Positions 4,456 to 32,000 of a DNA stretch of 32,000 nucleotides are shown here, in pieces. Numbering within the stretch: position 1 is the stretch's first letter; every line of letters starts with the position of its first letter. The stretch spans positions 3,150,001 through 3,182,000 of the forward strand of contig NC_003272.1 of the NCBI RefSeq assembly GCF_000009705.1. Direction: 5' to 3'. The position numbers and the translations under genes were made by a program. Source of the DNA: Nostoc sp. PCC 7120 = FACHB-418 (GTDB lineage: Bacteria; Cyanobacteriota; Cyanobacteriia; Cyanobacteriales; Nostocaceae). The notes under the pieces were generated by a model. That model did not search any database. It was given only the letters and a program-made list of their open reading frames with translations, and had not been told where the DNA came from.

Positions 4456-4464
4456 ATTTTTTTA

Positions 4465-4506
4465 ACGCAAAGGGGCGCAGAGGGAAACGCGGAGGGGCGC
4501 GGAGAG
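4465..4506. repeat. CGCAGAGG-family repeat, intergenic
   Basis: acgcaaaggggcgcagagggaaacgcggaggggcgcggagag. Confidence 0.85.
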
Positions 4507-4510
4507 AAGA

Positions 4511-6950: not shown

Positions 6951-6958
6951 GTTTTTAA

Positions 6959-7000
6959 ACGCAGAGGTACGCGGAGGTTAACGCAAAGGTGCGCGGAGGT
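6959..7000. repeat. CGCAGAGG-family repeat spanning the intergenic gap and the last codons of the hydroxylase-R gene
   Basis: acgcagaggtacgcggaggttaacgcaaaggtgcgcggaggt. Encodes ...NLRAPLR*. Confidence 0.85.
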
Positions 7001-16877: not shown

Positions 16878-16952
16878 CTCACGCAGAGGCGCAGAGACAC
16901 AGAGAGTAAGAGAACTCTGCGTACCTTTGCGTTACCTCCGCGTACCTCCGCG
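16878..16952. repeat. CGCAGAGG-family units in inverted arrangement (intergenic NRPS2/NRPS3)
   Basis: ctcacgcagaggcgcagaga...ctctgcgtacctttgcgttacctccgcgtacctccgcg. The left and right halves are imperfect reverse complements. Confidence 0.85.
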
Positions 16953-16969
16953 TTTCAAAAAAACTCCTC

Positions 16970-19900
16970 TCATAACTCTCCCAACAACTTATCTAATTCA
17001 TCTTGACTGAAATCCATTTGCGGGAAGTCAGAGGGAGTAAAGCCGCTAACTTCAGGGGTGAGACAATGCTGAATTAATGAAAGTAGTATCTGTTGATAGT
17101 TTTCTGCTAAGGTGGCGATGGTTTGGCGATGATGCAGTTGTTTGCTGTATGTCCAATCACATCGCAGTTTTCCTCCTGTGACGATGCTGTTAATTTCAAT
17201 CAGAGTGTTACGTTTCCCTCTAGAACTACGGCTATGTCCGATAGATTCACTGGCTGGGGTAAAGAGTGAATTTTCCGAGAAAATTTGGTCAGATTGTCCT
17301 AAATAGTTAAATCTGACTTGTGGTAAAGGTATTGCTTTGATAGTGTCTCGAATTGTTGGCGATGCTAAATAGCGCAACAACCCATAGCTAATTCCTCGGT
17401 CTGGAATTTGCCGTAGTTGCTCTTTGATAGCTTTGAGGGAAATCCCTAGATCGGCAGAGGGATATATATCTAATAATACTGGGAATAGGCTGGTAAACCA
17501 ACCCATTGTTCGAGATAAATTAATACTTGGAAACAAATCTTCTCTTCCATGTCCTTCTAGTTCTACTAACAAGCGATTTTCACCCGTCCATGTTTGGAAG
17601 GCTAAGACTAAGGCTGTTAATAAAACATCATTAATTTGGGTACGGTAGGCGTGAGGAACTTCTTGCAGGAGGTTTTGGGTATCTGTGACGCTGAGAAATG
17701 TAGAATAGGTGTCTACATCTGCCATTGTATTAGAACCTGGGGCATAATCTACGGGGAGAGGTGGTATTTGTTGCCAAGTGGGGGATGTCCAGTAATTGAA
17801 GGCTGCTTGTAAATCGGCACTCCAGGTATGTTCTTGTAGTTTATTTGCCCACTGTTGATAGGATGTGGTTTTGGGTGGGAGTTGGATTTGCTGTCCTTGG
17901 CTAAGTTGTTGGTAGGCTAGTTGCAAATCTTCGAGAAACACCCGCCAGGAGATGCCATCAATGATTAAGTGATGGAAAATCAGAAGTAAGCGATGATTTT
18001 GAGTTTCACCACAGTCAAAATAGGCTAAACGTAGCAATGGCGGTGTTTCTAGGTTGAAACTGGCTTGTAAATCATTGGCAATATTAGCTATTGTGTCTGA
18101 TACTTTTTCTGGGTGAAGGTTTGTCAATTCTGACATATCAAAATAATAAAACCCCTCTCCAAGCCTCTCCCCCAGAGGGAGAGAGGCTTTGATTTCTCCC
18201 CTTCCCTTGTAGAGAAGGGGTTGGGGGTTAGGTTTCTGCGTATTATGTAATTGATTGATGTCTGCTACAAATTGTCGCCAACCGTCGGGGGTTTGTTGGA
18301 AGTGCGATCGCAATCCATCATGGTGTGCTAATAGTTGATCTAATGCTTGCCGTAAGTAATCAGGGTTAAGAGATTGGTGTACTTCTAAAAGAATGGCTTG
18401 ATTCCAATGATGTGCATCTACTAGATTTTGCTCAAAGAACCATTGCTGAATAGGAGTGAGAGGAACTTCCCCTGTGATTGGTGTTTGCTCACTAGATAAT
18501 GTGGTATCAGTGTCCACAATGGCTGCTAGTTCTGCCACTGTTTGATATTGGAACATCTGCCGGGGTCGTAAAGCCAAGCCTTGTTGATTCGCTTTGGCTA
18601 CTGCTTGAATGGCTAAAATTGAATCACCACCCAATCTAAAGAAGTTATCATGAATGCTGATAGATTCTACCCCTAAAACCTGAGTCCAAATATTAATTAA
18701 TTGTTGTTCTATGGGTGTGCGGGGTGCGGTTGTGGTGGTGACTGGCGATAAATCAGGTATGGGTAAAGCAAAACGGTCTACTTTACCATTAGCTGTTAGA
18801 GGTAAAGTTTCCAGGATGACAAACGCTGTCGGTAGCATATAAGCAGGAAGTTTCGCCGCTAAAAATTGCCTTAATTCTGCTGCTTCAATGTGAGATTTGG
18901 GAACAACATAAGCTACTAGGCGGCTATGTTCTGGCGTATCATTGCGAACAATGGCGACAGCCTGCGTTAACTCTGGATGTTGATGAAGTAACGCTTCAAT
19001 TTCCCCCAATTCAATGCGAAAACCACGCAATTTCACCTGATGGTCGAAACGCCCCAGATATTCAATATTACCATCTGGAAGATAACGAGCGCGATCGCCT
19101 GTTTTGTAGAGAGTGTTGACTGTTGACTGTTGACTGTTGACTGTTGACTGTTTAATAAACCTCTCGTCCGTCAATTTTGGACGCTTCCAGTAACCTCTTG
19201 CTAACCCTGCGCCACTGAGGTAAATTTCACCGGGTATGCCAACGGGAACGGGTTGCAGGTTTTGGTCTAGGATATAAACTTGAGTGTTGGCGATGGGTTG
19301 ACCGATTGTCGGGGCTTGTTGACTATTGCGGGGAATGAGCGCATGGGTAGAGTAGGTGGTATCTTCTGAAGGCCCGTAAAGATTATATACGCGCTCAATT
19401 GTGGATTGTTGATAGAGTTCGTCTACCAACGATTTCGGTAAAGGTTCGCCGGCTAAGTTTACTGTCTGTACTGTTGCGGCAATACCATTTAAACGTAGCA
19501 GTTCTCTGGCGGCTGAGGGGACTGTATTGATTAAAGTAACTTGTGCGGCTGCTGGTAATTCTGGTAGTTGTAGGGCATTATCAGCGAGGATGACGCAACC
19601 TCCCCAACTTAGGGGAACGAAGATTTCAAATATTGAAAGGTCAAAACAAATGGAAGTGGAAGCTAAAACACCTGTTAATTCTGCTCTTGTGTAAATTTCT
19701 CGCGCCCAATACATCAGCGTTACCGGACTTTGATGAGTAATGGCGACTCCTTTGGGAATGCCTGTAGTGCCGGAGGTGTAGATGATGTAGGCTAGGTTGG
19801 TTGGGGACTGGGGACTGGGGACTGGGGATTGGGGACTGGGGATTGGGGTGTCTAGGGAAATTATGGGGATTTGGAGTTGGGGGAGTTTAGTTAATTGTTT

Positions 19901-22900
19901 TTGCTGGGTGAGTAACACCTGCATTTGGGAATCTTCAATAATAAATGCTAATCTGGCTTCGGGATAAGTGGGGTCTAGGGGAACGTAAGCACCGTCAGCT
20001 TTGAGGATAGCCAATAAGCCGATAATCATATCTAGGGAACGGTCAACGCAAATTCCCACGGGCGTTTCTGGCTGGACACCTAAACTTTGCAGATGACAGG
20101 CTAATTGATTGGCTTTGGTGTTTAATTCTTGATATGTTAGCTGTTTTTCACCCCAAATCACTGCTATCTTTTCCGGGGTTTGTCTCACCTGTGCTTCAAA
20201 TAACTCATGTAAACACTGCTGAGGATACTGGCGTTGAGTGGCGTTCCATTGTGCGAGTTGCTGCTGTTCAACAGTGGTTAATAACGGTAATTCGTTAATA
20301 TGCTGTTCGGGATTGAGAACTACTGCTTGTAATAATGTTTCTAAATGTCCAGCTAAACGCTCAATAGTTGTGGCTGCGAATAAATCAGTATTATATTCCA
20401 ACTTACAGCTTAAGCCTTGAGCAGTTTCGCTCACGAACCAAGTCAGGTCAAATTTTGCTGTACCACTATCCGCCTCAATTACTTGCCATTCTATGCCCCC
20501 CATATCCAACTCTGGCAAAGGTAAATTTTGTAACACCAGCATCACTTGAAAAAGAGGCGAATGACTGAGCGATCGCACTGGTTGCAGCACATCTACCAAT
20601 TGTTCAAAAGGTAAATCCTGATGAGCATAAGCACCCAAAGCAGTTGCCCGAACCCGTGACAATAAATCAGCAAAACTAGGATTAGCACTCAAATCAGTAC
20701 GTAAAGCCAGAGTGTTAGCGAAACAACCAATTAACCCTTCCGTCTCTACACGATTGCGATTAGCTATAGGACTACCAACCACAATATCATCATCACCACT
20801 GTAACGATATAACAGCACATTCCAAACAGCCAACAAAGTCATAAATAAAGTGCTGTGATAACGCCGACTCAACCCTTGCAAACCCTGAGTCAATTCCGCC
20901 GACAAACCAAACCCATATACAGCCCCCCGAAAAGACTGTACAGCCGGACGGGGGTAATCAGTCGGTAATTCCAACATCACCGGCGCAGACTCCAACTGTC
21001 CGCGCCAATACTCCAAATGTTCCTCTAAAACCCTCCCCCGCAACCACTCCCTCTGCCAAAAAGCAAAATCCACATACTGAATCCTCTCCTCCTCTCTGCG
21101 TCTTTGCGCCTTCCCTGCGGGACGCTCCGCGAATGCGCGAGAAATTTCCCGAACCAACAACCCCACAGACCAAGCATCAGCAATAATATGATGCAAAGTC
21201 AACAATAATACCTGATTCCCCTCCCCCAATTTTACCAACCGCACCCGCCACAACAAACCAGCCAAATCAAAAGGCTGCTGCGCCTGAGTTCGCGCCAACT
21301 CCTGCACCTGCTGCTGTTGTTCAAATTCCGGTAATCCCTGTAAATCAATCACTGGTATATTGACATCACAAACATCAGCAATCCTCAAAACAGGCTGTCC
21401 ATCGACATTCAAGAAATGCGATCGCAAAATTTCCTGTCGCCGCACCACTTCCGTAAAACTGCGCTGCAAACTATCCAAGTGGATATCACCCCGAATTTGC
21501 ACCGCCAAAGGAATATTATAAAAAGGGCTATCCGGTTCTAACTGCGCTAAAATCCAAAAGCGTTGCTGGGCAAAAGATAGAGGTAAGTTACCAGTGCGAG
21601 CAATCGGTAATATTGGGTTAATTTCGTGGTGACTATGTTCTATTACTCTGGCTAAATCCGCAATTTTCGGACTTTCAAACAGATTACGTAATGGTAACTC
21701 TACACCAAATACCTGCCGTACTTGAGAAATTAACCGCGTCGCCAGCAGGGAATGTCCCCCCAAATCAAAGAAATTATCCTCAATACCCACCGACTCGACA
21801 CCCAACACCATCGCCCAAATACTCGCCAAAACTTCCTCTGTTGGTGTGCGAGGGGTTTCATTTACCTGTGATTGGGTATTGGGAGTGGGTAAGGCTTTAC
21901 GGTCAACTTTACCATTAGGTGTGAGGGGTAAGGCTGTTAATGTGACAAACACCCCAGGAATCATATATTTTGGGAGTTTGTTGGCGAGGAATTGCTGTAA
22001 ATCATTGCTTCCCACATCCTGAGAATTGGGGACGATGTAAGCGACTAAACGCTGTTCTCCTGGTTCATCTTCTTGCACGCTTACTACTGCTTGTGATATT
22101 TGGGGATGTTGTGCTAATACTGCCTCAATTTCTCCTAATTCAATGCGAAAACCGCGAATTTTGACTTGATAATCTAATCTACCCAAGTATTCTAGTTTAC
22201 CATCTGGGAGATATCGGACGCGATCGCCTGTTTTATATAAGGTGTTGACTGTTGACTGTTGACTGTTGACTGTTGACTGTTGATTGAGAAATCTTTCTGC
22301 TGTTAAGTCTGGACGTTGCCAATATCCTTTGGCAACTCCTGCACCACCAATATATAATTCTCCTGGTACGCCGATGGGGACTGGTTGTAAATGCTCGTCG
22401 AGGACGTAAAATTGGGTGTTGGCGATGGGATGACCGATGGTTACGGGTTCATCTATACTGAGTTTTTGGGCTGCTGACCAAATGGTGGTTTCTGTTGGTC
22501 CGTATAAGTTCCAGACTTCTTGAGTACAGGATAATAATTGTTGGGCTAGGGTGTTATCTAATGCTTCGCCGCCACAGAGAATTTTCAAGTCCTGTTTACC
22601 TTCCCAACCACTGGCTAAAAGTAACCGCCAAGTTGCTGGGGTGGCTTGCATAAAGGTGATTTGATGTTGTGCGATCGCTTGTGCTAATCTCTCTCCATCT
22701 AGGGTGACTTCCCTTTCTACTAAGACTAAACAAGCACCGACAATTAAGGGTAAGAAAATCTCTAAGGCTGCAATATCAAAGGCTAGGGTGGTGACAGCTA
22801 AAAGGTTATCTTCTGCTGTGAGTCCTGGTGCTTTGGACATTGCGGTTAAGAAGTTGCTTAAGCTTCTGTGCAAAATTTGCACGCCTTTGGGTGTTCCGGT

Positions 22901-24823
22901 TGAACCGGAGGTGTAAATTAGGTAGGCGAGTTGATTGGGGTGTGATAAATCATTGGTTTTGTCGGTGTTGCTGATGAGTGGGATGATTTTTATTTCACGC
23001 AGAGGCGCAGAGGCGCAGAGAGGAGTTTTAAGAGGTTTATTTAATGCTATTTCCTCTATGAGTGGGAGGTTGTTTAATAAGGAAGTTTGAGTTAATAAGA
23101 TTGAGATTTGTGAGTCGTTGATTATAAACTGTAAACGCTCTTGGGGATAGCCGGGGTCGAGGGGAACGTAAGCACCGCCGGCTTTGTGAACTGCTAATAG
23201 GGAGATTACCATTTCTAGAGAGCGATCGCAGCAAATTCCTACTCTTGTTTCTGCTTGCACTCCTATGTTTTGTAAATAGGCAGCTAGGTGATTAGCTTCT
23301 TGTTCTAGTTGCTGATACGTTAGGGATTTATTACCAAAAAGAACGGCAATTTTATCTGGTGTTTTTTCTACTTGTTGACTAAATAATTCATAAACTGTTA
23401 ATTCTGGAATATCTGTAAATGTATCGTTCCATTCTGTTAATAGATTTTGTTCTTTAACTGTTAATAATGGTACTTCATTAATAGATTGTTTGGGATTATC
23501 AACAATATTTGATAATAAAATTTGAAAATGTGCAATTAATCTTTCAATAGTAGCTTGTTCAAATAATTCTGTACTGTATTCCCAAGTTCCCCTTAAACCG
23601 TTTGGTGTTTCGTACATATCCAAGCTGATATCAAAGCGAGATGTAGAATGTTCGGTTTCTAGAGGTTCAATTTTTAATCCAGGTAAATTTGTCGTTTTAT
23701 TCGGTGTGTTATGGAGAACAAACATTACCTGGAATAAAGGATTTTGACTTAAATTTCGTTCTGGTTGCAGTTGTTCTACTAAATCTTCAAAGGGTAAATC
23801 TTGGTGAGATAACGCGCCTAAAACTGTTTCTTTTACTTGGTTAAGAAGTTCGATAAAACTGGGTTTACCAGATAAATTGGTGCGAAATATGAGATTATTA
23901 ACAAATAGACCAATGAGGTTAGCAATTTCTGGGCGATCGCGGCTAGTAACTGTAGAACCAACTAATATATCATCCTGTCCACTGTAGCGATATAATAAGA
24001 TATTAAATGCTGTTAAAAGAGTCATGAACAGCGTAGCATTATACTGTTGACTCAATTGTCGCAATTGCTCAGATAATTCTGGTGATAAAGTAAAAAATAG
24101 CCTTGCACCTTTAAAAGTTTGTATAGCGTTACGTGGATAATCTGTTGGTAAAGATAATTCACGGGGATAATTTTTTAGTTGTTCTTGCCAGTATAATAAT
24201 TGATTTTGTCTAGCTTCACTTTGCAGCCATTTTTGTTGCCAAGTTGCAAAATCTGCAAATTGAATTGGTAATTTTGCTAAGGTTTGACCTTGATAAAGTG
24301 AGATTAATTCCCGCACCAAAACACGAAATGACCAGTAATCTGTAATGATGTGGTGCATGACCAAAATCAATACAAATTCAGTATCACTCAGTTGTAGTAA
24401 CGCCACACGTAATAAAGGCGGTTCTGTAAGTTGAAACGGTTGCTCTGTGAGTAATTTAGCTTGCTGTATGACTTGTGATTCTTGATTTTCTGGTGATAAT
24501 TCCCGCAAATCAATTATAGGTAGATTTATTTTGACGTTTACAGCAATATTCTGTACAGGTTCATCATTAATTACAGCAAAACTGGTGCGTAAAATCTCAT
24601 GACGCAACAAAATTGATTGTAAACTTTGCTCTAGGCGCGTGACATCGAGATTACCCGTCAACCTTAAAGCCGCAGGTACGTTATAAACTGATAATCCTGG
24701 CTGTAATTTATCTAGAAACCACAATCTTTTTTGAGCAAAAGAAAGCGGAAAATGTTGTTTGGTGGCTTTTTGTTGTAGTAGTTTCGCTAATAGTTCGCGT
24801 TTTTGGGATGTGGAAATATTCAT
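16970..24823 (-). CDS. NRPS subunit 2: C-A(Gly)-T-C-A(Ala-like)-T-E
   Basis: C1 MHHIITDYWS (~24331-24360). A1 LAYLIYTSGSTGTPKG with manual code DILQLGLIWK (canonical Gly). T1 FFDLGGHSL (~21741-21770). C2 LHHIIADAWS (~21170-21200). A2 LAYIIYTSGTTGIPKG with code DLFNNALTYK. T2 FFRLGGDSI (~18611-18640, the GGDSI type that precedes E domains). E: PLTPIQQWFF, FHHLIIDGISW (~17945-17980). C-terminal ...FSQDELDKLLGEL (COM-donor style). Confidence 0.95.
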   Translation of the reverse strand: MNISTSQKRELLAKLLQQKATKQHFPLSFAQKRLWFLDKLQPGLSVYNVPAALRLTGNLDVTRLEQSLQSILLRHEILRTSFAVINDEPVQNIAVNVKINLPIIDLRELSPENQESQVIQQAKLLTEQPFQLTEPPLLRVALLQLSDTEFVLILVMHHIITDYWSFRVLVRELISLYQGQTLAKLPIQFADFATWQQKWLQSEARQNQLLYWQEQLKNYPRELSLPTDYPRNAIQTFKGARLFFTLSPELSEQLRQLSQQYNATLFMTLLTAFNILLYRYSGQDDILVGSTVTSRDRPEIANLIGLFVNNLIFRTNLSGKPSFIELLNQVKETVLGALSHQDLPFEDLVEQLQPERNLSQNPLFQVMFVLHNTPNKTTNLPGLKIEPLETEHSTSRFDISLDMYETPNGLRGTWEYSTELFEQATIERLIAHFQILLSNIVDNPKQSINEVPLLTVKEQNLLTEWNDTFTDIPELTVYELFSQQVEKTPDKIAVLFGNKSLTYQQLEQEANHLAAYLQNIGVQAETRVGICCDRSLEMVISLLAVHKAGGAYVPLDPGYPQERLQFIINDSQISILLTQTSLLNNLPLIEEIALNKPLKTPLCASAPLREIKIIPLISNTDKTNDLSHPNQLAYLIYTSGSTGTPKGVQILHRSLSNFLTAMSKAPGLTAEDNLLAVTTLAFDIAALEIFLPLIVGACLVLVEREVTLDGERLAQAIAQHQITFMQATPATWRLLLASGWEGKQDLKILCGGEALDNTLAQQLLSCTQEVWNLYGPTETTIWSAAQKLSIDEPVTIGHPIANTQFYVLDEHLQPVPIGVPGELYIGGAGVAKGYWQRPDLTAERFLNQQSTVNSQQSTVNTLYKTGDRVRYLPDGKLEYLGRLDYQVKIRGFRIELGEIEAVLAQHPQISQAVVSVQEDEPGEQRLVAYIVPNSQDVGSNDLQQFLANKLPKYMIPGVFVTLTALPLTPNGKVDRKALPTPNTQSQVNETPRTPTEEVLASIWAMVLGVESVGIEDNFFDLGGHSLLATRLISQVRQVFGVELPLRNLFESPKIADLARVIEHSHHEINPILPIARTGNLPLSFAQQRFWILAQLEPDSPFYNIPLAVQIRGDIHLDSLQRSFTEVVRRQEILRSHFLNVDGQPVLRIADVCDVNIPVIDLQGLPEFEQQQQVQELARTQAQQPFDLAGLLWRVRLVKLGEGNQVLLLTLHHIIADAWSVGLLVREISRAFAERPAGKAQRRREEERIQYVDFAFWQREWLRGRVLEEHLEYWRGQLESAPVMLELPTDYPRPAVQSFRGAVYGFGLSAELTQGLQGLSRRYHSTLFMTLLAVWNVLLYRYSGDDDIVVGSPIANRNRVETEGLIGCFANTLALRTDLSANPSFADLLSRVRATALGAYAHQDLPFEQLVDVLQPVRSLSHSPLFQVMLVLQNLPLPELDMGGIEWQVIEADSGTAKFDLTWFVSETAQGLSCKLEYNTDLFAATTIERLAGHLETLLQAVVLNPEQHINELPLLTTVEQQQLAQWNATQRQYPQQCLHELFEAQVRQTPEKIAVIWGEKQLTYQELNTKANQLACHLQSLGVQPETPVGICVDRSLDMIIGLLAILKADGAYVPLDPTYPEARLAFIIEDSQMQVLLTQQKQLTKLPQLQIPIISLDTPIPSPQSPVPSPQSPTNLAYIIYTSGTTGIPKGVAITHQSPVTLMYWAREIYTRAELTGVLASTSICFDLSIFEIFVPLSWGGCVILADNALQLPELPAAAQVTLINTVPSAARELLRLNGIAATVQTVNLAGEPLPKSLVDELYQQSTIERVYNLYGPSEDTTYSTHALIPRNSQQAPTIGQPIANTQVYILDQNLQPVPVGIPGEIYLSGAGLARGYWKRPKLTDERFIKQSTVNSQQSTVNTLYKTGDRARYLPDGNIEYLGRFDHQVKLRGFRIELGEIEALLHQHPELTQAVAIVRNDTPEHSRLVAYVVPKSHIEAAELRQFLAAKLPAYMLPTAFVILETLPLTANGKVDRFALPIPDLSPVTTTTAPRTPIEQQLINIWTQVLGVESISIHDNFFRLGGDSILAIQAVAKANQQGLALRPRQMFQYQTVAELAAIVDTDTTLSSEQTPITGEVPLTPIQQWFFEQNLVDAHHWNQAILLEVHQSLNPDYLRQALDQLLAHHDGLRSHFQQTPDGWRQFVADINQLHNTQKPNPQPLLYKGRGEIKASLPLGERLGEGFYYFDMSELTNLHPEKVSDTIANIANDLQASFNLETPPLLRLAYFDCGETQNHRLLLIFHHLIIDGISWRVFLEDLQLAYQQLSQGQQIQLPPKTTSYQQWANKLQEHTWSADLQAAFNYWTSPTWQQIPPLPVDYAPGSNTMADVDTYSTFLSVTDTQNLLQEVPHAYRTQINDVLLTALVLAFQTWTGENRLLVELEGHGREDLFPSINLSRTMGWFTSLFPVLLDIYPSADLGISLKAIKEQLRQIPDRGISYGLLRYLASPTIRDTIKAIPLPQVRFNYLGQSDQIFSENSLFTPASESIGHSRSSRGKRNTLIEINSIVTGGKLRCDWTYSKQLHHRQTIATLAENYQQILLSLIQHCLTPEVSGFTPSDFPQMDFSQDELDKLLGEL
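17000..18480 (-). other. Epimerisation (E) domain
   Basis: PLTPIQQWFF and HHLIIDGISW, preceded by a GGDSI carrier and followed by a DCL-type C domain in the next subunit. Confidence 0.85.
18150..18236. repeat. Double-hairpin MITE-like element, inverted relative to the 27189/29031 copies, inside the E domain
   Basis: cctctccaagcctctcccccagagggagagaggctttgatttctccccttcccttgtagagaaggggttgggggttaggtttc. Read as KPNPQPLLYKGRGEIKASLPLGERLGEG. Confidence 0.85.
19115..19152. repeat. STRR3 array (GTTGACT)x5 in the A6-A7 loop of NRPS2-A2
   Basis: Read as KQSTVNSQQSTVN. Confidence 0.95.
19801..19848. repeat. STRR1 array (GGGGACT/GGGGATT, ~6.5 units) just upstream of the A3 motif of NRPS2-A2
   Basis: Coding strand CCCCAGT, read as PIPSPQSPVPSPQSP. 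Confidence 0.95.
21085..21139. repeat. CTCTGCG/CTTTGCG-family repeat inside the second C domain of NRPS2
   Basis: cctcctctctgcgtctttgcgccttccctgcgggacgctccgcgaatgcgcg, read as FAERPAGKAQRRREEE. Confidence 0.75.
22244..22285. repeat. STRR3 array (GTTGACT x5, GTTGATT x1) in the A6-A7 loop of NRPS2-A1
   Basis: Read as NQQSTVNSQQSTVN. Confidence 0.95.
22995..23025. repeat. CTCACGCAGAGG-family repeat upstream of the A3 motif of NRPS2-A1
   Basis: tcacgcagaggcgcagaggcgcagagaggag, read as PLCASAPLRE. Confidence 0.85.
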
Positions 24824-24852
24824 AATTTAATCAAGTAAAATAATATTTTTTC

Positions 24853-24957
24853 CTCACGCAGAGGCGCAGAGGCGCAAAGAGGAGAAAAGAGAGATAGTTT
24901 GATTAGAAAATTATCTCCTCTCCTCCTATTCTTCGCGTCTTTGCGTCTTTGCGTGAG
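24853..24957. repeat. CTCACGCAGAGG-family units in inverted arrangement spanning the NRPS1 stop and the NRPS1/NRPS2 intergenic gap
   Basis: ctcacgcagaggcgcagaggcgcaaagaggag ... ctcctctcctcctattcttcgcgtctttgcgtctttgcgtgag. The right arm encodes ...LSHAKTQRREE*. Confidence 0.85.
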
Positions 24958-27900
24958 ATAAATCATCCTCTTCTAACTGCATTTTTTGAAGTAAAATCTC
25001 TACTTCTTCATCAGAAAGTTCATCTAAATTTGCCAGTAATTCTTGTGGATTAATACGTTCAATAGGTTCAATTGTAATTTCTTGTTTTGCTTCCCACTGT
25101 TGTTTGAGTAACTCAGCTTGTGCAGTTAAGGTAGGATTGAGAAAAAATTCCCGAATGGGTAAATCAAGTTGGAGATTTTGCCGCATCTGAGTAATTATTT
25201 GAGTAGCTGATAATGAATTACCTCCCAATTCAAAAAAATTATTGTGAATGCTAGAAACTTCTACATTTAAAATAGATTGCCATAGTTGAGCTAGTGCTAT
25301 TTCTAATTCTGTAGAGGGAGGTATAATAGGCTGTTCAGATTGGCTAAATTGATATTCTGGCTGAGGTAACGCACGACGGTCAATTTTGCCATTTGGTGTT
25401 AATGGCAGCGTTTCTAGGGGAATATAGAGGCGGGGAATCATATATTCTGGCAATCTTTGTTGCAGGAATTGCCGTAGTTTTTGGGTAATTAATTCGGCTT
25501 TTGTTACCTTGGTTTGAGCAGTTTCAGGTGATAACCAACGGGTTGTCCAATGGGGGTCTATAATACCGCCTACAAACCCATGTAAGAATATTTGCTGCTC
25601 ATGTAAAATGAAATGTTCGCGGATCGCATCAAATTCTAAATCCCCAATGGGACACAAGCCTAAATTTTGATTTGGTGCGGTTTCCATTAATAGTTGACCC
25701 ATATAACCCGCTTCTAGTAAACAGAAGTCCCTAGATTTATCACCATAAACTGGCGAAATTGCTTGTAAGTCACCAATTAAAAAGATGGCAAATGCTGCTT
25801 GTGTAAAAATCTCTTGATTGATGCCATAGATACTACTATCAATGTTTGTCTCATCACTTAACTGGATAAGTTGATGTTTTTGGGGATGATAGTAATAAAA
25901 ACCAGCCGCTAAATTTTCAACTCGATGGGGTTTTATATAGATATATGTTTGGACTGGATATAAACTACCAGCCGAAGCATAGCGATATTTTGGTAATGGG
26001 GAATTTTCTAAATGTTGCATTTGCAAACACTCGAAAAATTCACCCAAGGCATTTAGAGGGATAGTTTCTGCTAAAAACTGTCTGTAACTTTGTCGCCGCA
26101 AATTGACTTGAGAAGATTTAACCCCAGGTAAAGCTACAGAATGCACCCCAGCATCAAATTTTCTGACTCCCTTTTGTTGCAATTTGAAATCCAGTTGTGA
26201 GGAGGAGTTAAGAGTGTTTTGACTAGCAATTACTTCTGGTTGCAATACCAGATAAGCAACTAATTGCTGTTGAGATAGTGCATTTCCCGCAGTTGTCACC
26301 ACAGCTTGAGTTATGGCTGGATGTTGTTGTAAAGCGGCTTCAATTTCTCCTAATTCAATTCGATAGCCATTAATTTTGACTTGAAAATCCTCCCGTCCCA
26401 AAAATTCTATTGTTCCATCAGATAAGTAGCGTCCTAAGTCGCCAGTTTTATATAGGGGTGTAGGGGTGTAGGGGTGTAGGGGTGTAGGGGGGAAATTCTC
26501 TCCCATGTCCAATTGAATAAATTTTTCCGCCGTTAATTCTGGATTTTGCCAATATCCTTTGGCGACTCCTAAACCACTGATGTAGATTTCGCCAATAGCC
26601 CAGGTGGGACAGGGTTCTAGGGAGTGGTTGAGGACGTAAACTTGTTGATTAGTCAATGAATAACCGTAGGGAATACTTTTCCAATTGGGGTCGATTGTCT
26701 CTATGGGGTAGAAAATTGACCAGATGGAAGCTTCTGTAGCACCGCCTAAGCTAATAATTTGGGGATGATTAAATTGGCTGCGGATGCGTGGGGGTAATGT
26801 GAGAGGAATCCAGTCACCACTGAGTAAAATTAGGCGGAGTGTCTGGTTTTGGGTGGGGGAGGTGTCAAGTAAAAGCTGCATCAGGGCGGGAACTGTGTTC
26901 CATATTGTCACCTGATGTTGGTTAATTAACTGCATCCAATGGGTGGGATCATTACCGCTTTTAGGAATGATGATTGTTCCGCCAGCCGCTAAAATGCCAA
27001 AGATGTCATACACGGATAAATCAAAACTAAGGGATGACACCGCTAAAACTCGGTCATTCTCTGTTACACCAAAGCGTTGATTAATATCTAATATTGTGTT
27101 GACTGCTCCCTGATGATCAATCATCACACCTTTGGGTGTTCCTGTTGAGCCAGAGGTGTAAATTACATAGGCTAAATCTGTGGGTTGACCTAACCCCCCA
27201 GCCCCCTTCCCTACAAGGGAAGGGGGAGAGTTTAAGATTGGTTCTACATCCGAAGAATCAGAGGGAGAGGTTAAAGCCTCTCTCCTTGTAGGAGAGAGGT
27301 TTGGAGAGAGGTCAACACATATCCGAGTTAGATGATCAGCCCATTCTAAAGTTGTATCTAACCAAGATTGGGTAAGTATAATTTGTGCTTGTGTTTCTTG
27401 TAATAGATGTAGACGACGCTGGGCTGGTAATTGCGGGTCAATGGGTACGTAGGCAGCACCAGCAGTTAGAATTGCTAAGGCTGCTACTATTTGTTCCCAA
27501 CCTTTATCCATGACAATTGCTACTAATTGGTTGGGAATTACACTTAATTGTTGTAAATGTTCGGCAAGATGACAGACGCGATCGCTCACCTGTTGATAGG
27601 TTAAAGTTTGTTCTGTGGTGACGATTGCGGTTTGGTTGGGTTGTTTTGCTACTTGCTGGAAAAATAGGGTTTGGAGGCAGGAGGCAGGGGGGCAGGGGGC
27701 AGGGGGCAGGGGGATGTGATTGGTATCGGGTTCTACTAACTGGTTGAGGAAATTACAGTAGGTGCGGAACATTTCATCTAACATTCCTGGGGGGAAAAGT
27801 TCATCAATGGTGTCCCAGTTAAATACTAATGCGCCGGCAACTTCTCCTACTTGATGGTCAAAATACACTTGGGAGGTTTGGCTGAGGCTGTATATTAATT

Positions 27901-30900
27901 CACCTTGCCAATTGCGGTTATCTTCTGGTTGTTGATAATCTTGGGTGAGGGTACTGGTAAAAACTACAGGCATTAATGCTTCTGTTACCCGTTGTTGCTG
28001 ACGCGCTAGTTGACGCAGTACCTCTACACCACTGAAATAACGATGGTCTAAATCATCCCACAGTTGGCTTTGGATGCGGTGAGCTAGTTCGAGGAAGTTA
28101 TTACACCCTGCACTCTTCATTTCTAGCAGCAGAGACGCTGTGAAGTCTCCGACAATTTGATTGACTTCGGGATGTAGGGGTAGACGGTTAAATAAGGTCA
28201 GATTTAGGGTGAAATTGGGTTGTTTGCTCCACCGTGAGAGAATTTTGGCAAAAGCAGCCAAAAGTATGCCGGATGGTGTAATTCCTGCTTCGCTGGCTTG
28301 CTGTTTGAGTTTTTGCCATTGGGTTGGGGATAAAGTTCCACTGCGACGGGTGAAATGCGGTTCTGTAATTTTACTGAGGGGTTTAGTTAAAGGTAATTCT
28401 GGTGCAGGAGGCAGGGTAGTCAGGCGATTTTGCCAGTAGGCTTGAGAACGGTGATAAATCGCTGAGTCTTGTAATGTTTTTTCTGTGAGGACGTAATCTC
28501 GGAAAGTTAAGTTAATGGGTGGTAACTCGACCTCTGGATTTTCCATAATTTGGACTAATTCTCTCCCTAATAAGCGAAAACTCCAAGCATCGCCGATTAA
28601 AACATCAAAGCTGATGCAGAAGCGGGTTTTGTTGTCATTTAATAAAATTGCTTGAATTTCAAATAAAGGATAGCTGTCAGTGGGGCGAACTTGATGAGAA
28701 AGGCGTTGGCGGATATCCTGGAGTGCAGAAGCTACCCCACGCAAATCTGTCACCGCAATTTTGAAATCCGGTACTTGTGATAAAACCTTTTGCTGTCCAT
28801 CAGCTTGGACAATCACCCGCAGCATATCATGACGCTCAATCAATCGCTGCATCGCCATTTCTACCTGTGCAACACTTAACCCCACCGTCTCAATTTCTTG
28901 ATAACCATGAGTAGCAATGTTACCCAACTCAAAAGCGGCGTTACGTCCGATGAGGTAAGCTTGCTGAATATCTGTCAGGGGAAAAGGTTGATAGCGTTCC
29001 TGGGGTTGGGGTTGAATTTTGGGTAGTCCGAAACCTAACCCCCTAACCCCCTTCCCTACAAGGGAAGGGGGGAATGTCAAAGCCTCTCTCCTCGTAGGAG
29101 AGAGGTCAATCTGTGCGGCTAAACTGGCAATGGTGGGAAACTGAAATAAATACTTTAGGGGTAATTCTACCTGCAAGGATTCGTTAATTCTCGCTACTAA
29201 CTGCATCCCCAGAAGTGAATGTCCGCCCAATGTAAAAAAGTTATCATAAATGCCGATAGGCTCAACTAAAAGTATTTCTCGCCAAATCACCTCTAAAGCT
29301 TGCTCTGTAGCTGTGCGAGGTGCTACATAACCAATTCCTAATTCTGAAGATAAATTTTCAACTGCGGGTAATGCCTTACGGTCAATCTTACCATTGGGAT
29401 TACGTGGCAGTGCATCCAAAGTCATGAAATGAGCAGGAATCATGTATCCAGGTAATTTATCTGTCAAATAATGCCGTAAATCTGCAATATTGATATTTTT
29501 AGGAGCAATATAAGCAACTAAATTTTTATCACCTGATGATGTTTCACTAGCAATCACGACAGATTCTTGAATTTCTGGATACTGACTGAGTAAAGCGTCT
29601 ATCTCGCCTAATTCAATGCGATAACCACGTATTTTTACTTGATTATCTAACCTACCTAAGTATTCAATATTGCCATCAGGCAGATAACGAACGCGATCGC
29701 CTGTTTTATATAAAGTGTTGACTGTTGATTGTTGACTGTTGACTGTTGACTGTTGATTAATAAACCTTTCTGCTGTTAATTCTGGGCGTTGCCAATATCC
29801 TCTGGCGACTCCTGCACCTGCAATGTATAATTCTCCTGGAACACCAACGGGTACTGGTTGTAAATGTTTGTCTAAAATATAAACTTGAGTATTGGCGATC
29901 GCACGACCAATAGGAGGAGTAGGACTATTTGGGGTAATATCTTTCAGTTCTATGTAAGTAGAATAAGTAGTATCTTCCGAAGGGCCATAAAGATTATAGA
30001 TGTGCTGAACATGGGGGAGTTGTTGAAGTTGCTGTACTAATTTCCATGTCAGAGGTTCACCCGCTAAATTCACTGTGTTCACAGAATGAGGAATAGCATT
30101 AAAGTTGAGAAGTTGAGTTATCGCACTTGGTACAGTATTAATTAACGTCACCTCATATTTAGCAGGTAAATTCGGCAATTCCAGAGCATTTTCTGCCAAA
30201 ATTACCTTACCCCCCCAACAAAGCGGGACAAAAATCTCAAACACCGATAAATCAAAACAAATAGAAGTAGCCGCCAACACCCCAGAAATCGCCTCATCAC
30301 AAAAAACCTCACGCGCCCAGTACAATAAACAAACTGGACTGCGATGCTCAATCATCACCCCTTTAGGCTTACCCGTAGAACCCGAAGTATAAATCAAATA
30401 AGCCAAATTCCCCGGCGTAACATCCGTCACAGGATTAGTAACAGGATATTCCCCAACACTCTCCCAATCTCCTAAATCAACAACCTTCTTTTCTTCCTTT
30501 GCGTCTTTGCGCCTTTGCGTGAGCATTACCTCCACTTTCGCATCATCCAAAATATACTGTAATCTCTCATCAGGATAAGCCGGATCGAGCGGAACATAAA
30601 AACCCCCAGCCTTGAGAATAGCTAACATCCCAATCACCATTTCCGGGGAACGTTCCAGACAAATTCCCACAGGCGTTTCTGGCTTAACTCCCAAAGTTTG
30701 TAAATAATAAGCCAGTTGATTAGCCTTAATATTAATTTCTCGATAAGTAAAAGCTTCCTCACCAAAAATCAAAGCAATTGCATCAGGAGTTCTTTCTACC
30801 TGCGCTGCAAATAATTCATGAATACACTCATGAGTAGGATATTCCCGTGATGTCGCATTCCAATTATTTAATAATTCTGCTTCCTGAGCAGTTAATAAAG

Positions 30901-32000
30901 ATAAATCAGATATTTTTGCATCAATATTTGTCACTATACTTTCTAAAAGCATCTGCCAATGCTCTGCTATTTGAGCAATAGTAGCAGCATCAAATAATTC
31001 CGAACTATATTCAAATTGTCCCTTGATTCCCTGGGGAGTATCTTGTAAATTTAGACGTAATTCATATTTGGCATTATCATCATTAATTGGCAACCTTTCT
31101 ACAGATAATCCTGTTAGTTGAGGTGGTTGTACTGTTGCCAGTTGTAAATCAAATTTTACCTGAAATAAAGGCATCATTTGATTGAGATGACGTTCAGGAT
31201 TCAGAACTTCTACCAACTTTTCAAAAGGTAAATGTTGATGAGCGAAAGCACCAAGCGTTACCTCACGTACTCGTTTTAATAATTCTGCTACTGTGGGATT
31301 TCCGTCTAAATTGGTACGCAATACTACAGTGTTGACTAATAAGCCAATGAGATTTTCTGTTTCCTGGCGATCGCGGTTAACAATATCTGTACCAATTAAT
31401 AAATCTTCTTCTCCTGTGTAGCGATATAGTAATACTTGAAAACTTGCCAGCAGCAGCATAAATAAGGTGACACTCTGCTTGGCAGCTAAGGTTTTCAACG
31501 CTTGTGATAAAGACGGAGAAAGAGCAACTGTATATTGTGAGCCAGAGTATGTAGATACATCTTTACGCAGAGTAGGTAACTGTAAAACAGGCAATTCACC
31601 GCCTAATTTTTGTTGCCAATAATTAATTTGTTCTTCTAAAAATGCACCTTGTAATTGTTGTCTTTGCCACAATGCCCAATCAGCATATTGAATAGGTAAT
31701 TCTGATAAGGGTGCAGCTTCTCCCCGCACATAAGCGGAATATAATAGAGAAATTTCTTTGAGAAAGACACCGACTGACCAACGGTCAGAAATAATATGAT
31801 GGGTTGTGATTAATAAAATATGTTCGTTTTCAGCTAACCGGAAGAGGCTAGTTTTGAATAAAGGTTGAGTTAAATCAAAGGGTGTTTGTGCGGCTGTTAA
31901 TGCTATTTTTTCGATTTCTTCGGTTGTGTCTATAATTTGTAAGGTGATGGGTTGCCAAGGTTCGATAATTTGAATGGGTTGATTTTCGGAGTTGGTTGGG
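24926..32000 (-). CDS. NRPS subunit 1 (5' end beyond right edge): ...C-A(Ala-like)-T-Cy-A(Cys, with embedded FMN oxidase)-T
   Basis: The track's 'M' at 31729 is an internal GTG (Val). The frame stays open to 32000 (checked codon by codon) and includes the C-domain motif THHIISDRWS (31784-31804). A1 LAYLIYTSGSTGKPKG (~30365-30410), code DLFNNALTYK. T1 FFTLGGHSL (~29215-29240). Cy: FPLTDIQQAYLIGR, FDVLIGDAWS (~28583-28612). A2 LAYVIYTSGSTGTPKG (~27125-27175), code DLYNLSLIWK (Cys). Ox insert KYRYASAGSLYPVQ. T2 FFELGGNSL (~25205-25235). C-terminal docking-like LDELSDEEVEILLQKM. Confidence 0.95.
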   Translation of the reverse strand, partial: PTNSENQPIQIIEPWQPITLQIIDTTEEIEKIALTAAQTPFDLTQPLFKTSLFRLAENEHILLITTHHIISDRWSVGVFLKEISLLYSAYVRGEAAPLSELPIQYADWALWQRQQLQGAFLEEQINYWQQKLGGELPVLQLPTLRKDVSTYSGSQYTVALSPSLSQALKTLAAKQSVTLFMLLLASFQVLLYRYTGEEDLLIGTDIVNRDRQETENLIGLLVNTVVLRTNLDGNPTVAELLKRVREVTLGAFAHQHLPFEKLVEVLNPERHLNQMMPLFQVKFDLQLATVQPPQLTGLSVERLPINDDNAKYELRLNLQDTPQGIKGQFEYSSELFDAATIAQIAEHWQMLLESIVTNIDAKISDLSLLTAQEAELLNNWNATSREYPTHECIHELFAAQVERTPDAIALIFGEEAFTYREINIKANQLAYYLQTLGVKPETPVGICLERSPEMVIGMLAILKAGGFYVPLDPAYPDERLQYILDDAKVEVMLTQRRKDAKEEKKVVDLGDWESVGEYPVTNPVTDVTPGNLAYLIYTSGSTGKPKGVMIEHRSPVCLLYWAREVFCDEAISGVLAATSICFDLSVFEIFVPLCWGGKVILAENALELPNLPAKYEVTLINTVPSAITQLLNFNAIPHSVNTVNLAGEPLTWKLVQQLQQLPHVQHIYNLYGPSEDTTYSTYIELKDITPNSPTPPIGRAIANTQVYILDKHLQPVPVGVPGELYIAGAGVARGYWQRPELTAERFINQQSTVNSQQSTVNTLYKTGDRVRYLPDGNIEYLGRLDNQVKIRGYRIELGEIDALLSQYPEIQESVVIASETSSGDKNLVAYIAPKNINIADLRHYLTDKLPGYMIPAHFMTLDALPRNPNGKIDRKALPAVENLSSELGIGYVAPRTATEQALEVIWREILLVEPIGIYDNFFTLGGHSLLGMQLVARINESLQVELPLKYLFQFPTIASLAAQIDLSPTRREALTFPPSLVGKGVRGLGFGLPKIQPQPQERYQPFPLTDIQQAYLIGRNAAFELGNIATHGYQEIETVGLSVAQVEMAMQRLIERHDMLRVIVQADGQQKVLSQVPDFKIAVTDLRGVASALQDIRQRLSHQVRPTDSYPLFEIQAILLNDNKTRFCISFDVLIGDAWSFRLLGRELVQIMENPEVELPPINLTFRDYVLTEKTLQDSAIYHRSQAYWQNRLTTLPPAPELPLTKPLSKITEPHFTRRSGTLSPTQWQKLKQQASEAGITPSGILLAAFAKILSRWSKQPNFTLNLTLFNRLPLHPEVNQIVGDFTASLLLEMKSAGCNNFLELAHRIQSQLWDDLDHRYFSGVEVLRQLARQQQRVTEALMPVVFTSTLTQDYQQPEDNRNWQGELIYSLSQTSQVYFDHQVGEVAGALVFNWDTIDELFPPGMLDEMFRTYCNFLNQLVEPDTNHIPLPPAPCPPASCLQTLFFQQVAKQPNQTAIVTTEQTLTYQQVSDRVCHLAEHLQQLSVIPNQLVAIVMDKGWEQIVAALAILTAGAAYVPIDPQLPAQRRLHLLQETQAQIILTQSWLDTTLEWADHLTRICVDLSPNLSPTRREALTSPSDSSDVEPILNSPPSLVGKGAGGLGQPTDLAYVIYTSGSTGTPKGVMIDHQGAVNTILDINQRFGVTENDRVLAVSSLSFDLSVYDIFGILAAGGTIIIPKSGNDPTHWMQLINQHQVTIWNTVPALMQLLLDTSPTQNQTLRLILLSGDWIPLTLPPRIRSQFNHPQIISLGGATEASIWSIFYPIETIDPNWKSIPYGYSLTNQQVYVLNHSLEPCPTWAIGEIYISGLGVAKGYWQNPELTAEKFIQLDMGENFPPTPLHPYTPTPLYKTGDLGRYLSDGTIEFLGREDFQVKINGYRIELGEIEAALQQHPAITQAVVTTAGNALSQQQLVAYLVLQPEVIASQNTLNSSSQLDFKLQQKGVRKFDAGVHSVALPGVKSSQVNLRRQSYRQFLAETIPLNALGEFFECLQMQHLENSPLPKYRYASAGSLYPVQTYIYIKPHRVENLAAGFYYYHPQKHQLIQLSDETNIDSSIYGINQEIFTQAAFAIFLIGDLQAISPVYGDKSRDFCLLEAGYMGQLLMETAPNQNLGLCPIGDLEFDAIREHFILHEQQIFLHGFVGGIIDPHWTTRWLSPETAQTKVTKAELITQKLRQFLQQRLPEYMIPRLYIPLETLPLTPNGKIDRRALPQPEYQFSQSEQPIIPPSTELEIALAQLWQSILNVEVSSIHNNFFELGGNSLSATQIITQMRQNLQLDLPIREFFLNPTLTAQAELLKQQWEAKQEITIEPIERINPQELLANLDELSDEEVEILLQKMQLEEDDLSHAKTQRREE
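25500..26240 (-). other. FMN-dependent oxidase (Ox) domain inserted in the A8-A9 region of the Cys A domain
   Basis: About 245 aa lie between QLVAYLVL (26243-26266) and LPEYMIP (25432-25455). They contain KYRYASAGSLYPVQTYIYI and EAGYMGQLL, as in EpoB/BlmIII-type Ox domains (from memory). Confidence 0.8.
26453..26492. repeat. Octamer array (GGGGTGTA)x4 in the A6-A7 loop of the Cys A domain
   Basis: Coding strand TACACCCC, read as PPTPLHPYTPTPLY. Confidence 0.95.
27189..27313. repeat. Double-hairpin MITE-like element (long-spacer copy) upstream of the A3 motif of the Cys A domain
   Basis: Hairpin A: cccccttccct-aca-agggaaggggg (27202-27226). Hairpin B: cctctctcc-ttgta-ggagagagg (27277-27299). 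Read as LSPNLSPTRREALTSPSDSSDVEPILNSPPSLVGKGAGGLGQ. Confidence 0.85.
27673..27713. repeat. G-rich heptamer array (GGAGGCA/GGGGGCA, ~6 units) in the Cy-A linker
   Basis: Read as IPLPPAPCPPASCLQ. Confidence 0.9.
27720..29000 (-). other. Heterocyclisation (Cy) domain
   Basis: FPLTDIQQAYLIGR, and DxxxxD (DVLIGD) in place of HHxxxDG. Borders are approximate. Confidence 0.85.
29031..29106. repeat. Double-hairpin MITE-like element in the T-Cy linker of NRPS1
   Basis: Hairpin A: 29048-29072 (11-bp perfect stem, loop aca). Hairpin B: 29084-29106 (9-bp perfect stem). Read as LSPTRREALTFPPSLVGKGVRGLGFG. Confidence 0.9.
29717..29758. repeat. STRR3 array (GTTGACT x4, GTTGATT x2) in the A6-A7 loop of NRPS1-A1
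   Basis: Read as NQQSTVNSQQSTVN. Confidence 0.95.
30496..30523. repeat. CTTTGCG-orientation copy of the CTCACGCAGAGG family upstream of the A3 motif of NRPS1-A1
   Basis: cctttgcgtctttgcgcctttgcgtgag, read as LTQRRKDAKE. Confidence 0.85.

Follow-up and report, generated by a model that had tools for sequence, protein, structure and literature searches.

Hairpin repeats translated within two nonribosomal peptide synthetase genes of Nostoc sp. PCC 7120 probably are inserted units of a BoxC/PIT-type triplex motif

How do short and highly symmetrical DNA hairpins come to be translated, in frame, within large multidomain enzymes? This question is raised by a stretch of 32,000 nucleotides from Nostoc sp. 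PCC 7120 = FACHB-418 (contig NC_003272.1, positions 3,150,001 to 3,182,000; the whole stretch is hereafter called the window), in which two nonribosomal peptide synthetase (NRPS) genes carry a pair of hairpins, A and B, at each of three sites. An initial annotation, made from the sequence alone, had described these sites as three copies of a double-hairpin element of about 80–125 bp. Our analysis indicates that the three copies are probably made up of six units that were inserted in the NRPS genes and belong to a dispersed, non-coding repeat of the BoxC/PIT/intrastrand-triplex type, and we put the probability of this reading at roughly three in four. The double hairpin is a head-to-head pair of two triplex-type units with their tails pointing outward.

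The hairpins were located by searches of the window in which up to three mismatches were allowed and 100 dinucleotide-preserving shuffles served as the control. Hairpin A (CCCCTTCCCTnnnnGGGAAGGGG) occurred only at 18198–18220 (one mismatch), 27203–27225, and 29048–29070 (no mismatch in either), and hairpin B (CCTCTCTCCnnnnnGGAGAGAGG) only at 18164–18186 (one mismatch), 27277–27299, and 29083–29105 (no mismatch in either). Neither hairpin had a single match in the 100 shuffled sequences, which bears out the presence of both at the three sites, and a looser unit scan of the window returned no units beyond the six. The A stem of 11 bp is perfect in copies 2 and 3, and the B stem is perfect over 9 bp in B2 and B3, or 12 bp long if one G.T pair is counted. 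The copy at 18150–18236 lies in the reverse-complement orientation to the other two, as had been recognized, and each of its stems has one imperfect pair.

Each unit spans approximately 40 nt. Its pyrimidine arm is followed by a loop and a purine arm and, after about 3 nt more, by a third segment that is a mirror of the purine arm; that is, the purine arm is reversed without being complemented, and an A is answered by A or T. Two types of unit were distinguished, type A (CCCCCTTCCCT.../GGGGGTTAGGT) and type B (CCTCTCTCC.../GGAGAGAGGT), which usually stand head to head with their tails outward. The third segment reads GGGGGTTAGGT in A-type units and GGAGAGAGGT, GGGGAGAGGT, or GGAGAGGGGT in B-type units. 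What had been annotated as an "end" of each hairpin is indeed present in the sequence, but it is really this third, mirror-repeat segment of the unit. The six units in the window are as follows.

18151–18187, minus strand: unit B1, arms GCCTCTCTCCC and GGGGGAGAGGC, loop TCT, then CTT; stem with one G.T pair
18198–18233, plus strand: unit A1, CCCCTTCCCT, loop TGT, AGAGAAGGGG, TT, third segment GGGGGTTAGGT
27188–27226, minus strand: unit A2, CCCCCTTCCCT, TGT, AGGGAAGGGGG, CTG, GGGGGTTAGGT; perfect 11-bp stem
27273–27312, plus strand: unit B2, AAAGCCTCTCTCC, TTGTA, GGAGAGAGGTTT, third segment GGAGAGAGGT; mirror relation at 9/9 positions
29033–29071, minus strand: unit A3, CCCCCTTCCCT, TGT, AGGGAAGGGGG, TTA, GGGGGTTAGGT
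29079–29106, plus strand: unit B3, hairpin only, AAAGCCTCTCTCC, TCGTA, GGAGAGAGGT, without a third segment

An intrastrand purine-motif triplex is marked by a mirror repeat of a purine tract beside the Watson–Crick partner of that tract. The units were compared with the definition of a class II triplex motif: arms of 6–15 nt with at most one mismatch, two loops of 1–6 nt, and a mirror segment with at most one mismatch, the accepted third-segment triads being G.G:C, A.A:T, or T.A:T. The arms of all six units lie within these limits (perfect over 11 bp in A2 and A3 and over 9 bp in B2 and B3, with one imperfect pair in A1 and B1), as do the first loop of 3–5 nt (TGT, TTGTA, TCGTA, or TCT) and the second loop of 2–3 nt (TTA, CTG, TT, TTT, or CTT). 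The third segment conforms in four of the six units, agreeing with the mirror/triad rule at 10/11 positions in A2 and A3 and at 9/9 in B1 and B2. In B1, the segment GGAGAGGGGT occupies 18151–18160, and its GGAGAGGGG mirrors the purine-arm core GGGGAGAGG exactly. The two units that depart from the rule are A1 and B3. In A1, one position of the stem and two of the mirror relation are mismatched, and the unit is therefore a decayed copy. In B3, four codons (LSPN) found in B2 are absent because the third segment is missing; the segment was probably lost through a 12-nt in-frame slippage deletion, which fits slippage between direct GGAGAGAGGT repeats. Predicted RNA folds, in which only Watson–Crick pairs are modelled, had energies of −42 to −63 kcal/mol with z-scores of −3.3 to −5.5, the outer tails pairing and closing the structure. 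Rfam gave no family at the gathering score within the window, and matches overlapping the elements were at chance level only. A G-quadruplex or i-motif reading of the G-rich tails was set aside, because a triplex motif better explains a mirror relation that follows the arms.

The closest described family is found among triplex motifs, which had not been considered in the initial annotation. BoxC, PIT (potential intrastrand triplex; Hoyne et al. 2000 is the work cited for these elements), and TM_ECO are described by Holder et al. 2015 (PMC4666352) as a C-rich stem, a loop of 3–6 nt, a G-rich stem, a loop of 3 nt, and then another stem rich in G. According to the same study, the single-strand triplex was demonstrated in vitro for the E. 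coli motif, all five inverted pairs in E. coli MG1655 combine one type A with one type B motif, partial deletions leave a hairpin, the E. coli motifs show no connection to transposons, and G/C-rich motifs are numerous in Nostoc sp. PCC 7120 and A. variabilis (PMC4666352). The window units share with this family the architecture, the conserved stems with varying loops, the many dispersed copies, the inverted pairs of two unit types, the hairpin-leaving partial deletions, and the lack of any known associated transposon. They differ from TM_ECO in sequence: by inspection, none of the six fits the strict TM_ECO/BoxC consensus CCCTCNCCC-N3-6-GGGNGAGGG-N3-GGGNGAGGG (CCCTCNCCC...GGGNGAGGG). On sequence grounds, we regard the window units as other members of the G/C-rich class II motifs (C-G-G).

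Both genes that hold the units lie on the minus strand.

16970–24823, minus strand: host gene 1, NRPS of 2617 aa, domain order C-A-T-C-A-T-C/E
24926–32000, minus strand, continuing past the window edge: host gene 2, NRPS, domain order C-A-T-Cy-A(nitroreductase/Ox)-T

Host gene 1 comprises two Condensation, two AMP-binding, and two PP-binding domains, followed by a terminal condensation-like domain. The full length of host gene 2 (2459 aa) was read from contig JACJQR010000002.1 (GCA_014696775.1), which is 99.996% identical to the window; 12 contigs, GCA_003990585.1 among them, carry the same NRPS gene. Site 1 lies approximately 75 residues N-terminal of HHLIIDG in the terminal condensation/epimerisation-like domain of gene 1, site 2 immediately ahead of the LAYVIYTSGSTGTPKG motif (A3 core) in the A domain of gene 2, and site 3 in the T-Cy linker of gene 2, with a PP-binding domain on one side and a Cy-type condensation domain on the other. 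This domain context agrees with the positions given in the initial annotation (a T-Cy linker, a pre-A3 loop, and an E-domain loop before HHxxxDG). The six units contribute 13–29 residues to these loops and linkers, all in frame. The ORF translations likewise confirm that the minus-strand reading frames stay open across all three copies in both orientations: there are no stop codons, the encoded peptides are LSPTRREALTFPPSLVGKGVRGLG (copy 1), LSPNLSPTRREAL...SPPSLVGKGAGGLG (copy 2), and KPNPQPLLYKGRGEIKASLPLGERLGEG (copy 3), and the translated orientation is the same at 27.2 and 29.0 kb and the opposite at 18.2 kb. In the 76-nt copy, one of the three frames is open per orientation, and the gene reads exactly that open frame.

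Are these segments part of the native enzymes? The following coding segments were compared with homologous NRPSs.

18146–18241, minus strand: gene 1 codons across the B1+A1 pair, aa 2195–2226, TQKPNPQPLLYKGRGEIKASLPLGERLGEGFY
27227–27272, minus strand: native coding sequence between A2 and B2, TSPSDSSDVEPIL; outside the repeat
29021–29110, minus strand: gene 2 codons across the B3+A3 pair in the T-Cy linker, IDLSPTRREALTFPPSLVGKGVRGLGFGLP

The insert at site 1, of about 28–29 residues, is absent from 23 homologous terminal domains (48–52% identity). At site 2, approximately 28 of the 30 aligned homologues read CVDxxE-xPSSSxPLEPV-QQPSDLAY, and the remaining two do not reach the site; the window reads CVD-[LSPNLSPTRREAL]-TSPSDSSDVEPIL-[NSPPSLVGKGAGGLG]-QPTDLAY. 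Here TSPSDSSDVEPIL corresponds in the alignment to the xPSSSxPLEPI loop of the homologues' A domains, and the DNA-level alignment agrees. The spacer of the 125-nt copy is the native loop, and B2 and A2 are therefore two separate insertions of about 14 codons each; the "125-bp copy" does not hold as one element, since some 45 nt of native codons part two single units. B2 codes for LSPNLSPTRREAL on the gene strand, and A2 codes for (N)SPPSLVGKGAGGLG, which abuts the A3 core motif. At site 3, the sequence is AAQID-QLQRHEIQL-GLPKIQPQ in the two closest homologues (identity 80% and 66%) and AAQID-LSPTRREALTFPPSLVGKGVRGLGF-GLPKIQPQ in the window; 74 nt in the window correspond to 26 nt in the closest homologue, which makes the window 48 nt (16 codons) longer. 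All three sites are thus unoccupied in homologous NRPS genes, as opposed to filled by the same peptides without hairpin symmetry, and the segments are therefore insertions. No target-site duplication was visible against the unoccupied homologue sites, the homologues (66–80% amino acid identity) being too diverged to set the boundaries.

Some of the same loops hold other repeats in other proteins. The two closest site-1 homologues (P0121 and P0122, from a Nostoc commune NRPS) carry a different hairpin-repeat insert, PPLQGGIKGG, in the same terminal-domain loop, and a Crinalium NRPS (P0009) carries another hairpin-type repeat, PLSRGETNSLPLSRGE...PLIRGGLGWG (PLSRGE...PLIRGGLGWG), in the same pre-A3 loop. 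It appears that repeats have landed in, or been tolerated by, the pre-A3 and terminal-domain loops more than once. One apparent rearrangement at copy 2 was rejected: in a metagenome-assembled genome (MAG; DOPZ01000026.1, locus L123, around 411–478, corresponding to window 27293–27314), a run of N lies exactly at B2 and the gene is called as two pieces, so that the supposed rearrangement is actually a scaffolding gap.

Is the repeat confined to this cluster? Hairpin A was found in at least 120 genome tiles of 8 kb, where about four hits would be expected by calculation for a uniform 19-base pattern in 596 Gb, and the initial annotation was right in treating it as dispersed. The repeat is not confined to Nostocales, however. 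The matches listed include 46 from Nostocales, 14 from other cyanobacteria, 31 from Chloroflexota, 8 from Planctomycetota, and 7 from Desulfobacterota, besides Armatimonadota, Nitrospirota, and others; among them, Nostoc sp. CHAB 5836, Anabaena minutissima FACHB-250, and Desulfonema limicola have four to seven tiles apiece. Many matches lie on long contigs or complete chromosomes, with GC-rich flanks and lineage-typical host genes, which makes contamination unlikely. Hairpin A was not found in viral contigs. A plasmid BLAST returned six records, a number that carries little weight, probably owing to the short query and low-complexity masking. There is next to no chance that the three segments are native low-complexity linkers with coincidental symmetry and no insertion. 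Linkers in NRPSs do vary and often have a high content of Pro, Ser, and Gly, but shuffled sequence gave no match, the homologues lack the segments, and identical units occur at hundreds of unrelated places.

Flanks were aligned and unit anatomy was counted for 121 hairpin-A occurrences in other genomes, among the matches listed. The third segment accompanies 115 of these 121 hairpins, and 34 of 37 B-type hairpins have a mirror match at 8/9 or more positions on one side. The mirror segment also tracks the arm variant: GGAGAGGGG goes with GGGG[A/T]GAGG, GGGGAGAGG with GGAGAGGGG, and GGGGAGGGG with GGGGAGGGG. The window obeys the same rule, the arm GGAGAGAGG of B2 having the tail GGAGAGAGG and the arm GGGGAGAGG of B1 the tail GGAGAGGGG. 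Of the tailed A units, 68/115 face a partner hairpin head to head at a distance of up to 120 nt, and 50 of these 68 partners possess their own third segment; the other 47 A units are single. The unit of repetition is accordingly the single unit of about 40 nt, and not the 80–125-bp double hairpin that had been proposed.

These counts bear on whether the pairs could be a classical MITE (miniature inverted-repeat transposable element), that is, a single non-autonomous element of 80–125 bp with terminal inverted repeats (TIRs), moved by the transposase of an insertion sequence (IS) and flanked by target-site duplications. Between them, the outer tails form an imperfect inverted repeat (ACCTAACCCC and the reverse-complemented GGGGAGAGGT agree at 8/10 positions, with two central mismatches), and their pairing closes the predicted folds. 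The A-B spacing is tight in Nostocales (11–14 nt in 20 of 29 pairs), suggesting that pairs there probably propagate as one piece, and at many Nostoc loci the pair is central in a longer palindromic repeat. However, the spacing varies outside Nostocales, the 47 single tailed A units have no second end, the two units of copy 2 are parted by native codons, a target-site duplication is not visible at any of the three sites, and the E. coli relatives lack a link to transposons (PMC4666352). No transposase-like family recurred in the approximately 800 kb around the 121 copies, a sample that does not cover whole genomes, and clustering of the neighbouring genes at 120 loci gave generic families only (ABC ATPase, kinases, WD40, TPR, and similar). 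A classical MITE is therefore unlikely, and none of the hallmarks implied by the term "MITE-like" could be demonstrated. One locus, in Okeania sp. SIO2F4 (L033, 2251–5248), was considered as a possible IS because it has two copies 2.9 kb apart. There, two A+B pairs in opposite orientation, each beside a 25-nt inverted repeat (GCGCGGATTCATC.GTTCCATG), bracket 2.9 kb with a small ORF and a gene for a trypsin-like/FGE-sulfatase protein. This candidate was rejected because the segment encodes the protease/FGE-sulfatase protein; it may be a repeat-flanked cassette and not an IS.

The occurrence of single and paired forms also recalls REP/REPIN doublets, which are spread by a REP-associated tyrosine transposase (RAYT). 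Like the window units, these are short, G/C-rich, dispersed hairpins that stand singly or as inverted doublets and are sometimes genic (genic REPs are known; PMC3733652), and both RAYTs and REPINs are known from Nostoc punctiforme (PMC3116915). By contrast, the window units lack the conserved GTAG/CGTC beside the stem, where their flanks read CCTAACCCCC and GGGGAGAGGT; GTAG occurs only in the loop of Nostocales copies, and the sequence of this loop differs freely from genome to genome. REPs do not have the mirror third segment either. No RAYT link was found: no Y1-transposase-like neighbour recurred at the 120 loci, a weak argument since RAYTs are single-copy and no search was aimed at RAYT genes. 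Taken with the anatomy, an origin as REP/REPIN doublets is very unlikely.

Copies of the element also lie within genes of other genomes. Of the 121 copies, 38 (about 30%) are in stop-free stretches of at least 200 codons, an upper bound for GC-rich genomes. TM_ECO, by contrast, is "always intergenic" in E. coli MG1655 (PMC4666352), whereas all six window units are genic and translated. Nine genic copies were scanned with Pfam; eight have hosts with recognized domains, and one (L095) had no Pfam match. In six of the eight recognized hosts, domain matches flank or span the element. The eight hosts are listed below.

Gemmataceae (L024): PSCyt2/PSD1 protein, element within PSD1
Nostoc (L055): Peptidase_U32, with orthologous copies in two more genomes
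Uncultured cyanobacterium, MAG (L099): NB-ARC/TPR protein, element within NB-ARC
Cyanobacteria bacterium UBA11372 (L032): P-type ATPase, element about 15 residues past DKTGT
Anaerolineales (L023): histidine kinase
Calothrix (L065): AAA_35/WD40 protein
Desulfonema (L048): UvrD helicase, element upstream of the helicase domain
Nostoc (L047): asparagine synthase, element upstream of the Asn_synthase domain

The Peptidase_U32 copies (L055 at 5971, L060 at 6548, and L088 at 7727) are in frame and orthologous in three Nostocales genomes. Their A units are all intact and differ in the loops; of the B units, one is intact, another is partly degenerate, and the third is unrecognizable. The intact A is no evidence of selection, because the search demanded a perfect A stem. 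The 30-residue site-3 peptide, used as the query of an exhaustive phmmer search, gave 43 clusters, four of them of at least 206 aa. Most of the clusters are spurious ORFs of 51–154 residues overlying intergenic copies; the long matches include an 870-residue FGE-sulfatase protein. A peptide search of a set of 5.8 billion proteins returned short spurious ORFs only. Another of the long phmmer matches (P0263, 1143 aa), which has no Pfam match, consists in part of four repeats of approximately 130 residues, each holding a diverged translated B+A pair (NLSLNLSPKRRETLNFLPDSVGTGVRDLGF). In this protein, decayed repeat DNA seems to have become part of the coding sequence and subsequently to have been multiplied as a protein repeat.

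Could the hairpins be kept for a function, such as ribosome pausing for co-translational folding or recombination hot spots for NRPS domain swapping? The sites, a T-Cy linker and two loops, are domain boundaries or surfaces, the mRNA hairpins are predicted to be stable, the Cy domain lies between copies 2 and 3, which are direct repeats, and E. coli triplex motifs are associated with local genome instability (PMC4666352). On the other side, the units are mostly extragenic elsewhere and also occur in unrelated genes, even within catalytic domains; the window copies A1, B1, and B3 are decaying; and homologous NRPSs work without the inserts. The different repeat families found in the same loops (P0009, P0121, and P0122) point to tolerant positions rather than to function. 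Retention for a function is therefore highly improbable.

Other described elements resemble the units in part. Rickettsia palindromic elements (RPE; Ogata et al. 2000, as presented in PMC3733652 and PMC3184786) are likewise small in-frame palindromic repeats that give extra short peptide segments to host genes that seem functional, but in these accounts they are an unrelated sequence family with a CGTC tag (PMC3733652), of about 105 bp or more, restricted to Rickettsia, and described without a mirror segment. Cyanobacterial MITEs (Nezha; Wolk 2010; Fewer 2011; as summarized in PMC3184786) are non-autonomous elements of Anabaena and Nostoc, some of them fused to or inserted in ORFs, including the mcy genes for NRPS and polyketide synthase (PKS). 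As far as that summary goes, they differ in their size of 127–224 bp, clear TIRs, direct repeats, and parent IS, and the mcy insertions inactivate genes, whereas the reading frames in the window remain open (PMC3184786). The very small dispersed repeats (SDRs; SDR1–8) of Nostoc and Anabaena, with which the copies had first been compared, are 21–27 nt long and often nested in larger repeats. According to PMC5861425, the SDRs of Elhai et al. 2008 are found only in Nostocaceae, unlike our units of about 40 nt that occur across phyla; this comparison is by description only.

Several other repeats lie within the NRPS cluster itself. A tandem heptamer, TGTTGAC, in four to six copies, occurs in NRPS ORFs at 19114–19152, 22243–22283, 29716–29756, and 10784–10814, and the arrays encode QQSTVNSQQSTVN right ahead of the LYKTGD motif in three A domains; its recurrence at the same place in several modules points either to spreading by gene conversion or to insertion that happened repeatedly. 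STRR-like heptamer arrays (GGGGA(C/T)T / CCCCAGT, five to eight copies) are in frame in NRPS genes at 10483–10535, 10830–10866, 14288–14327, and 19802–19848, where they encode runs such as SPQSPVPSPQSP, and a further one is intergenic at 1503–1530. Rehm et al. 2015 (PMC4692102) reported that the PCC 7120 heptamer forms a G-quadruplex and is under-represented in coding regions. Short tandem arrays were also seen in ORFs at 26453–26490 and 27676–27713, and in addition at 14229–14260; they comprise the octamer TAGGGGTG (4.8 copies, encoding PTPLHPYTPTPL), GGCAGGG (5.3 copies, encoding PPAPCPPAS), and GAGTGCT (4.6 copies). Related repeats of 8–22 nt (AACGCAAAGG.GCGC.GAG / CTTTGCGT) occur at 4464–4508, 6958–7001, 16915–16954, 24857–24876, 24930–24954, and 30497–30520, which places them at most gene junctions of the cluster and once within gene 2, where they encode RRKDAKEEKK; they may be another dispersed repeat or a junction signal.

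How, then, could triplex-type units have come to be translated? A single-stranded unit would fold into a hairpin, with the third segment lying antiparallel on the purine arm to give a purine-motif triplex. Units or pairs of units would have entered three surface loops or linkers of the two NRPS genes, and those that persisted would be the ones with an insert length that is a multiple of three, a stop-free frame, and a loop or linker position, where peptides rich in Pro, Gly, Ser, Leu, and Arg may be tolerated. Translation of the units would be a passive by-product. The copies are decaying, as the stem mismatches in copy 1 and the lost third segment of B3 show. The mRNA would carry hairpins only, because RNA does not form purine-motif triplexes (PMC4666352, introduction).

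Several points weigh against the insertion of BoxC/PIT-type units as outlined here. The unoccupied sites come from homologues at 50–80% identity and not from strict orthologues, and at that distance exact boundaries or a target-site duplication cannot be read. Site 3 is no clean insertion, since 74 nt have taken the place of 26 nt. The genes near the 120 listed loci revealed no mobilising protein. The dispersal count covers other genomes, the source genome not being among the matches listed. The co-variation of arm and tail is suggestive and falls short of formal proof, because the counted copies share descent. Finally, the triplex of the E. coli motif was not detected in vivo (PMC4666352).

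Three features go beyond what we found described in the literature, namely, the genic location, the evidence from unoccupied homologues for the insertion of single units, and the near-identity of the A-type unit across several phyla; TM_ECO is reported from proteobacteria (PMC4666352). It is conceivable, although we consider it doubtful, that the A and B units are mobile modules of about 14 codons each that form triplexes and belong to one family, conserved in sequence across phyla, and that they insert singly or paired, in genes as well as between them, without an element-encoded transposase. In that case, a host function may recognize single-stranded DNA folded as hairpin plus triplex.

As far as the NRPS cluster is concerned, the finding is an ordinary one: three tolerated loop insertions. 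The repeats also have practical consequences, in that they disrupt short-read assembly, as the N-gap at B2 in the MAG illustrates, and generate many spurious "hypothetical proteins" of 50–150 aa. To our knowledge, neither the function nor the spreading route of BoxC/PIT/triplex-motif repeats, known since the 1990s, has an accepted explanation. The window presents units of this architecture as insertions in working-looking genes, in single and paired forms and with unoccupied sites in homologues, and close relatives of the unit occur in at least five phyla. This provides material for asking how the units move, whether the third segment plays a role, and how much short-peptide variation they add to proteins. 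If the units do prove to be cross-phylum mobile modules, they would constitute a widespread, so far unrecognized origin of short peptides inserted into NRPSs and other large multidomain proteins, where they might also create recombination breakpoints.

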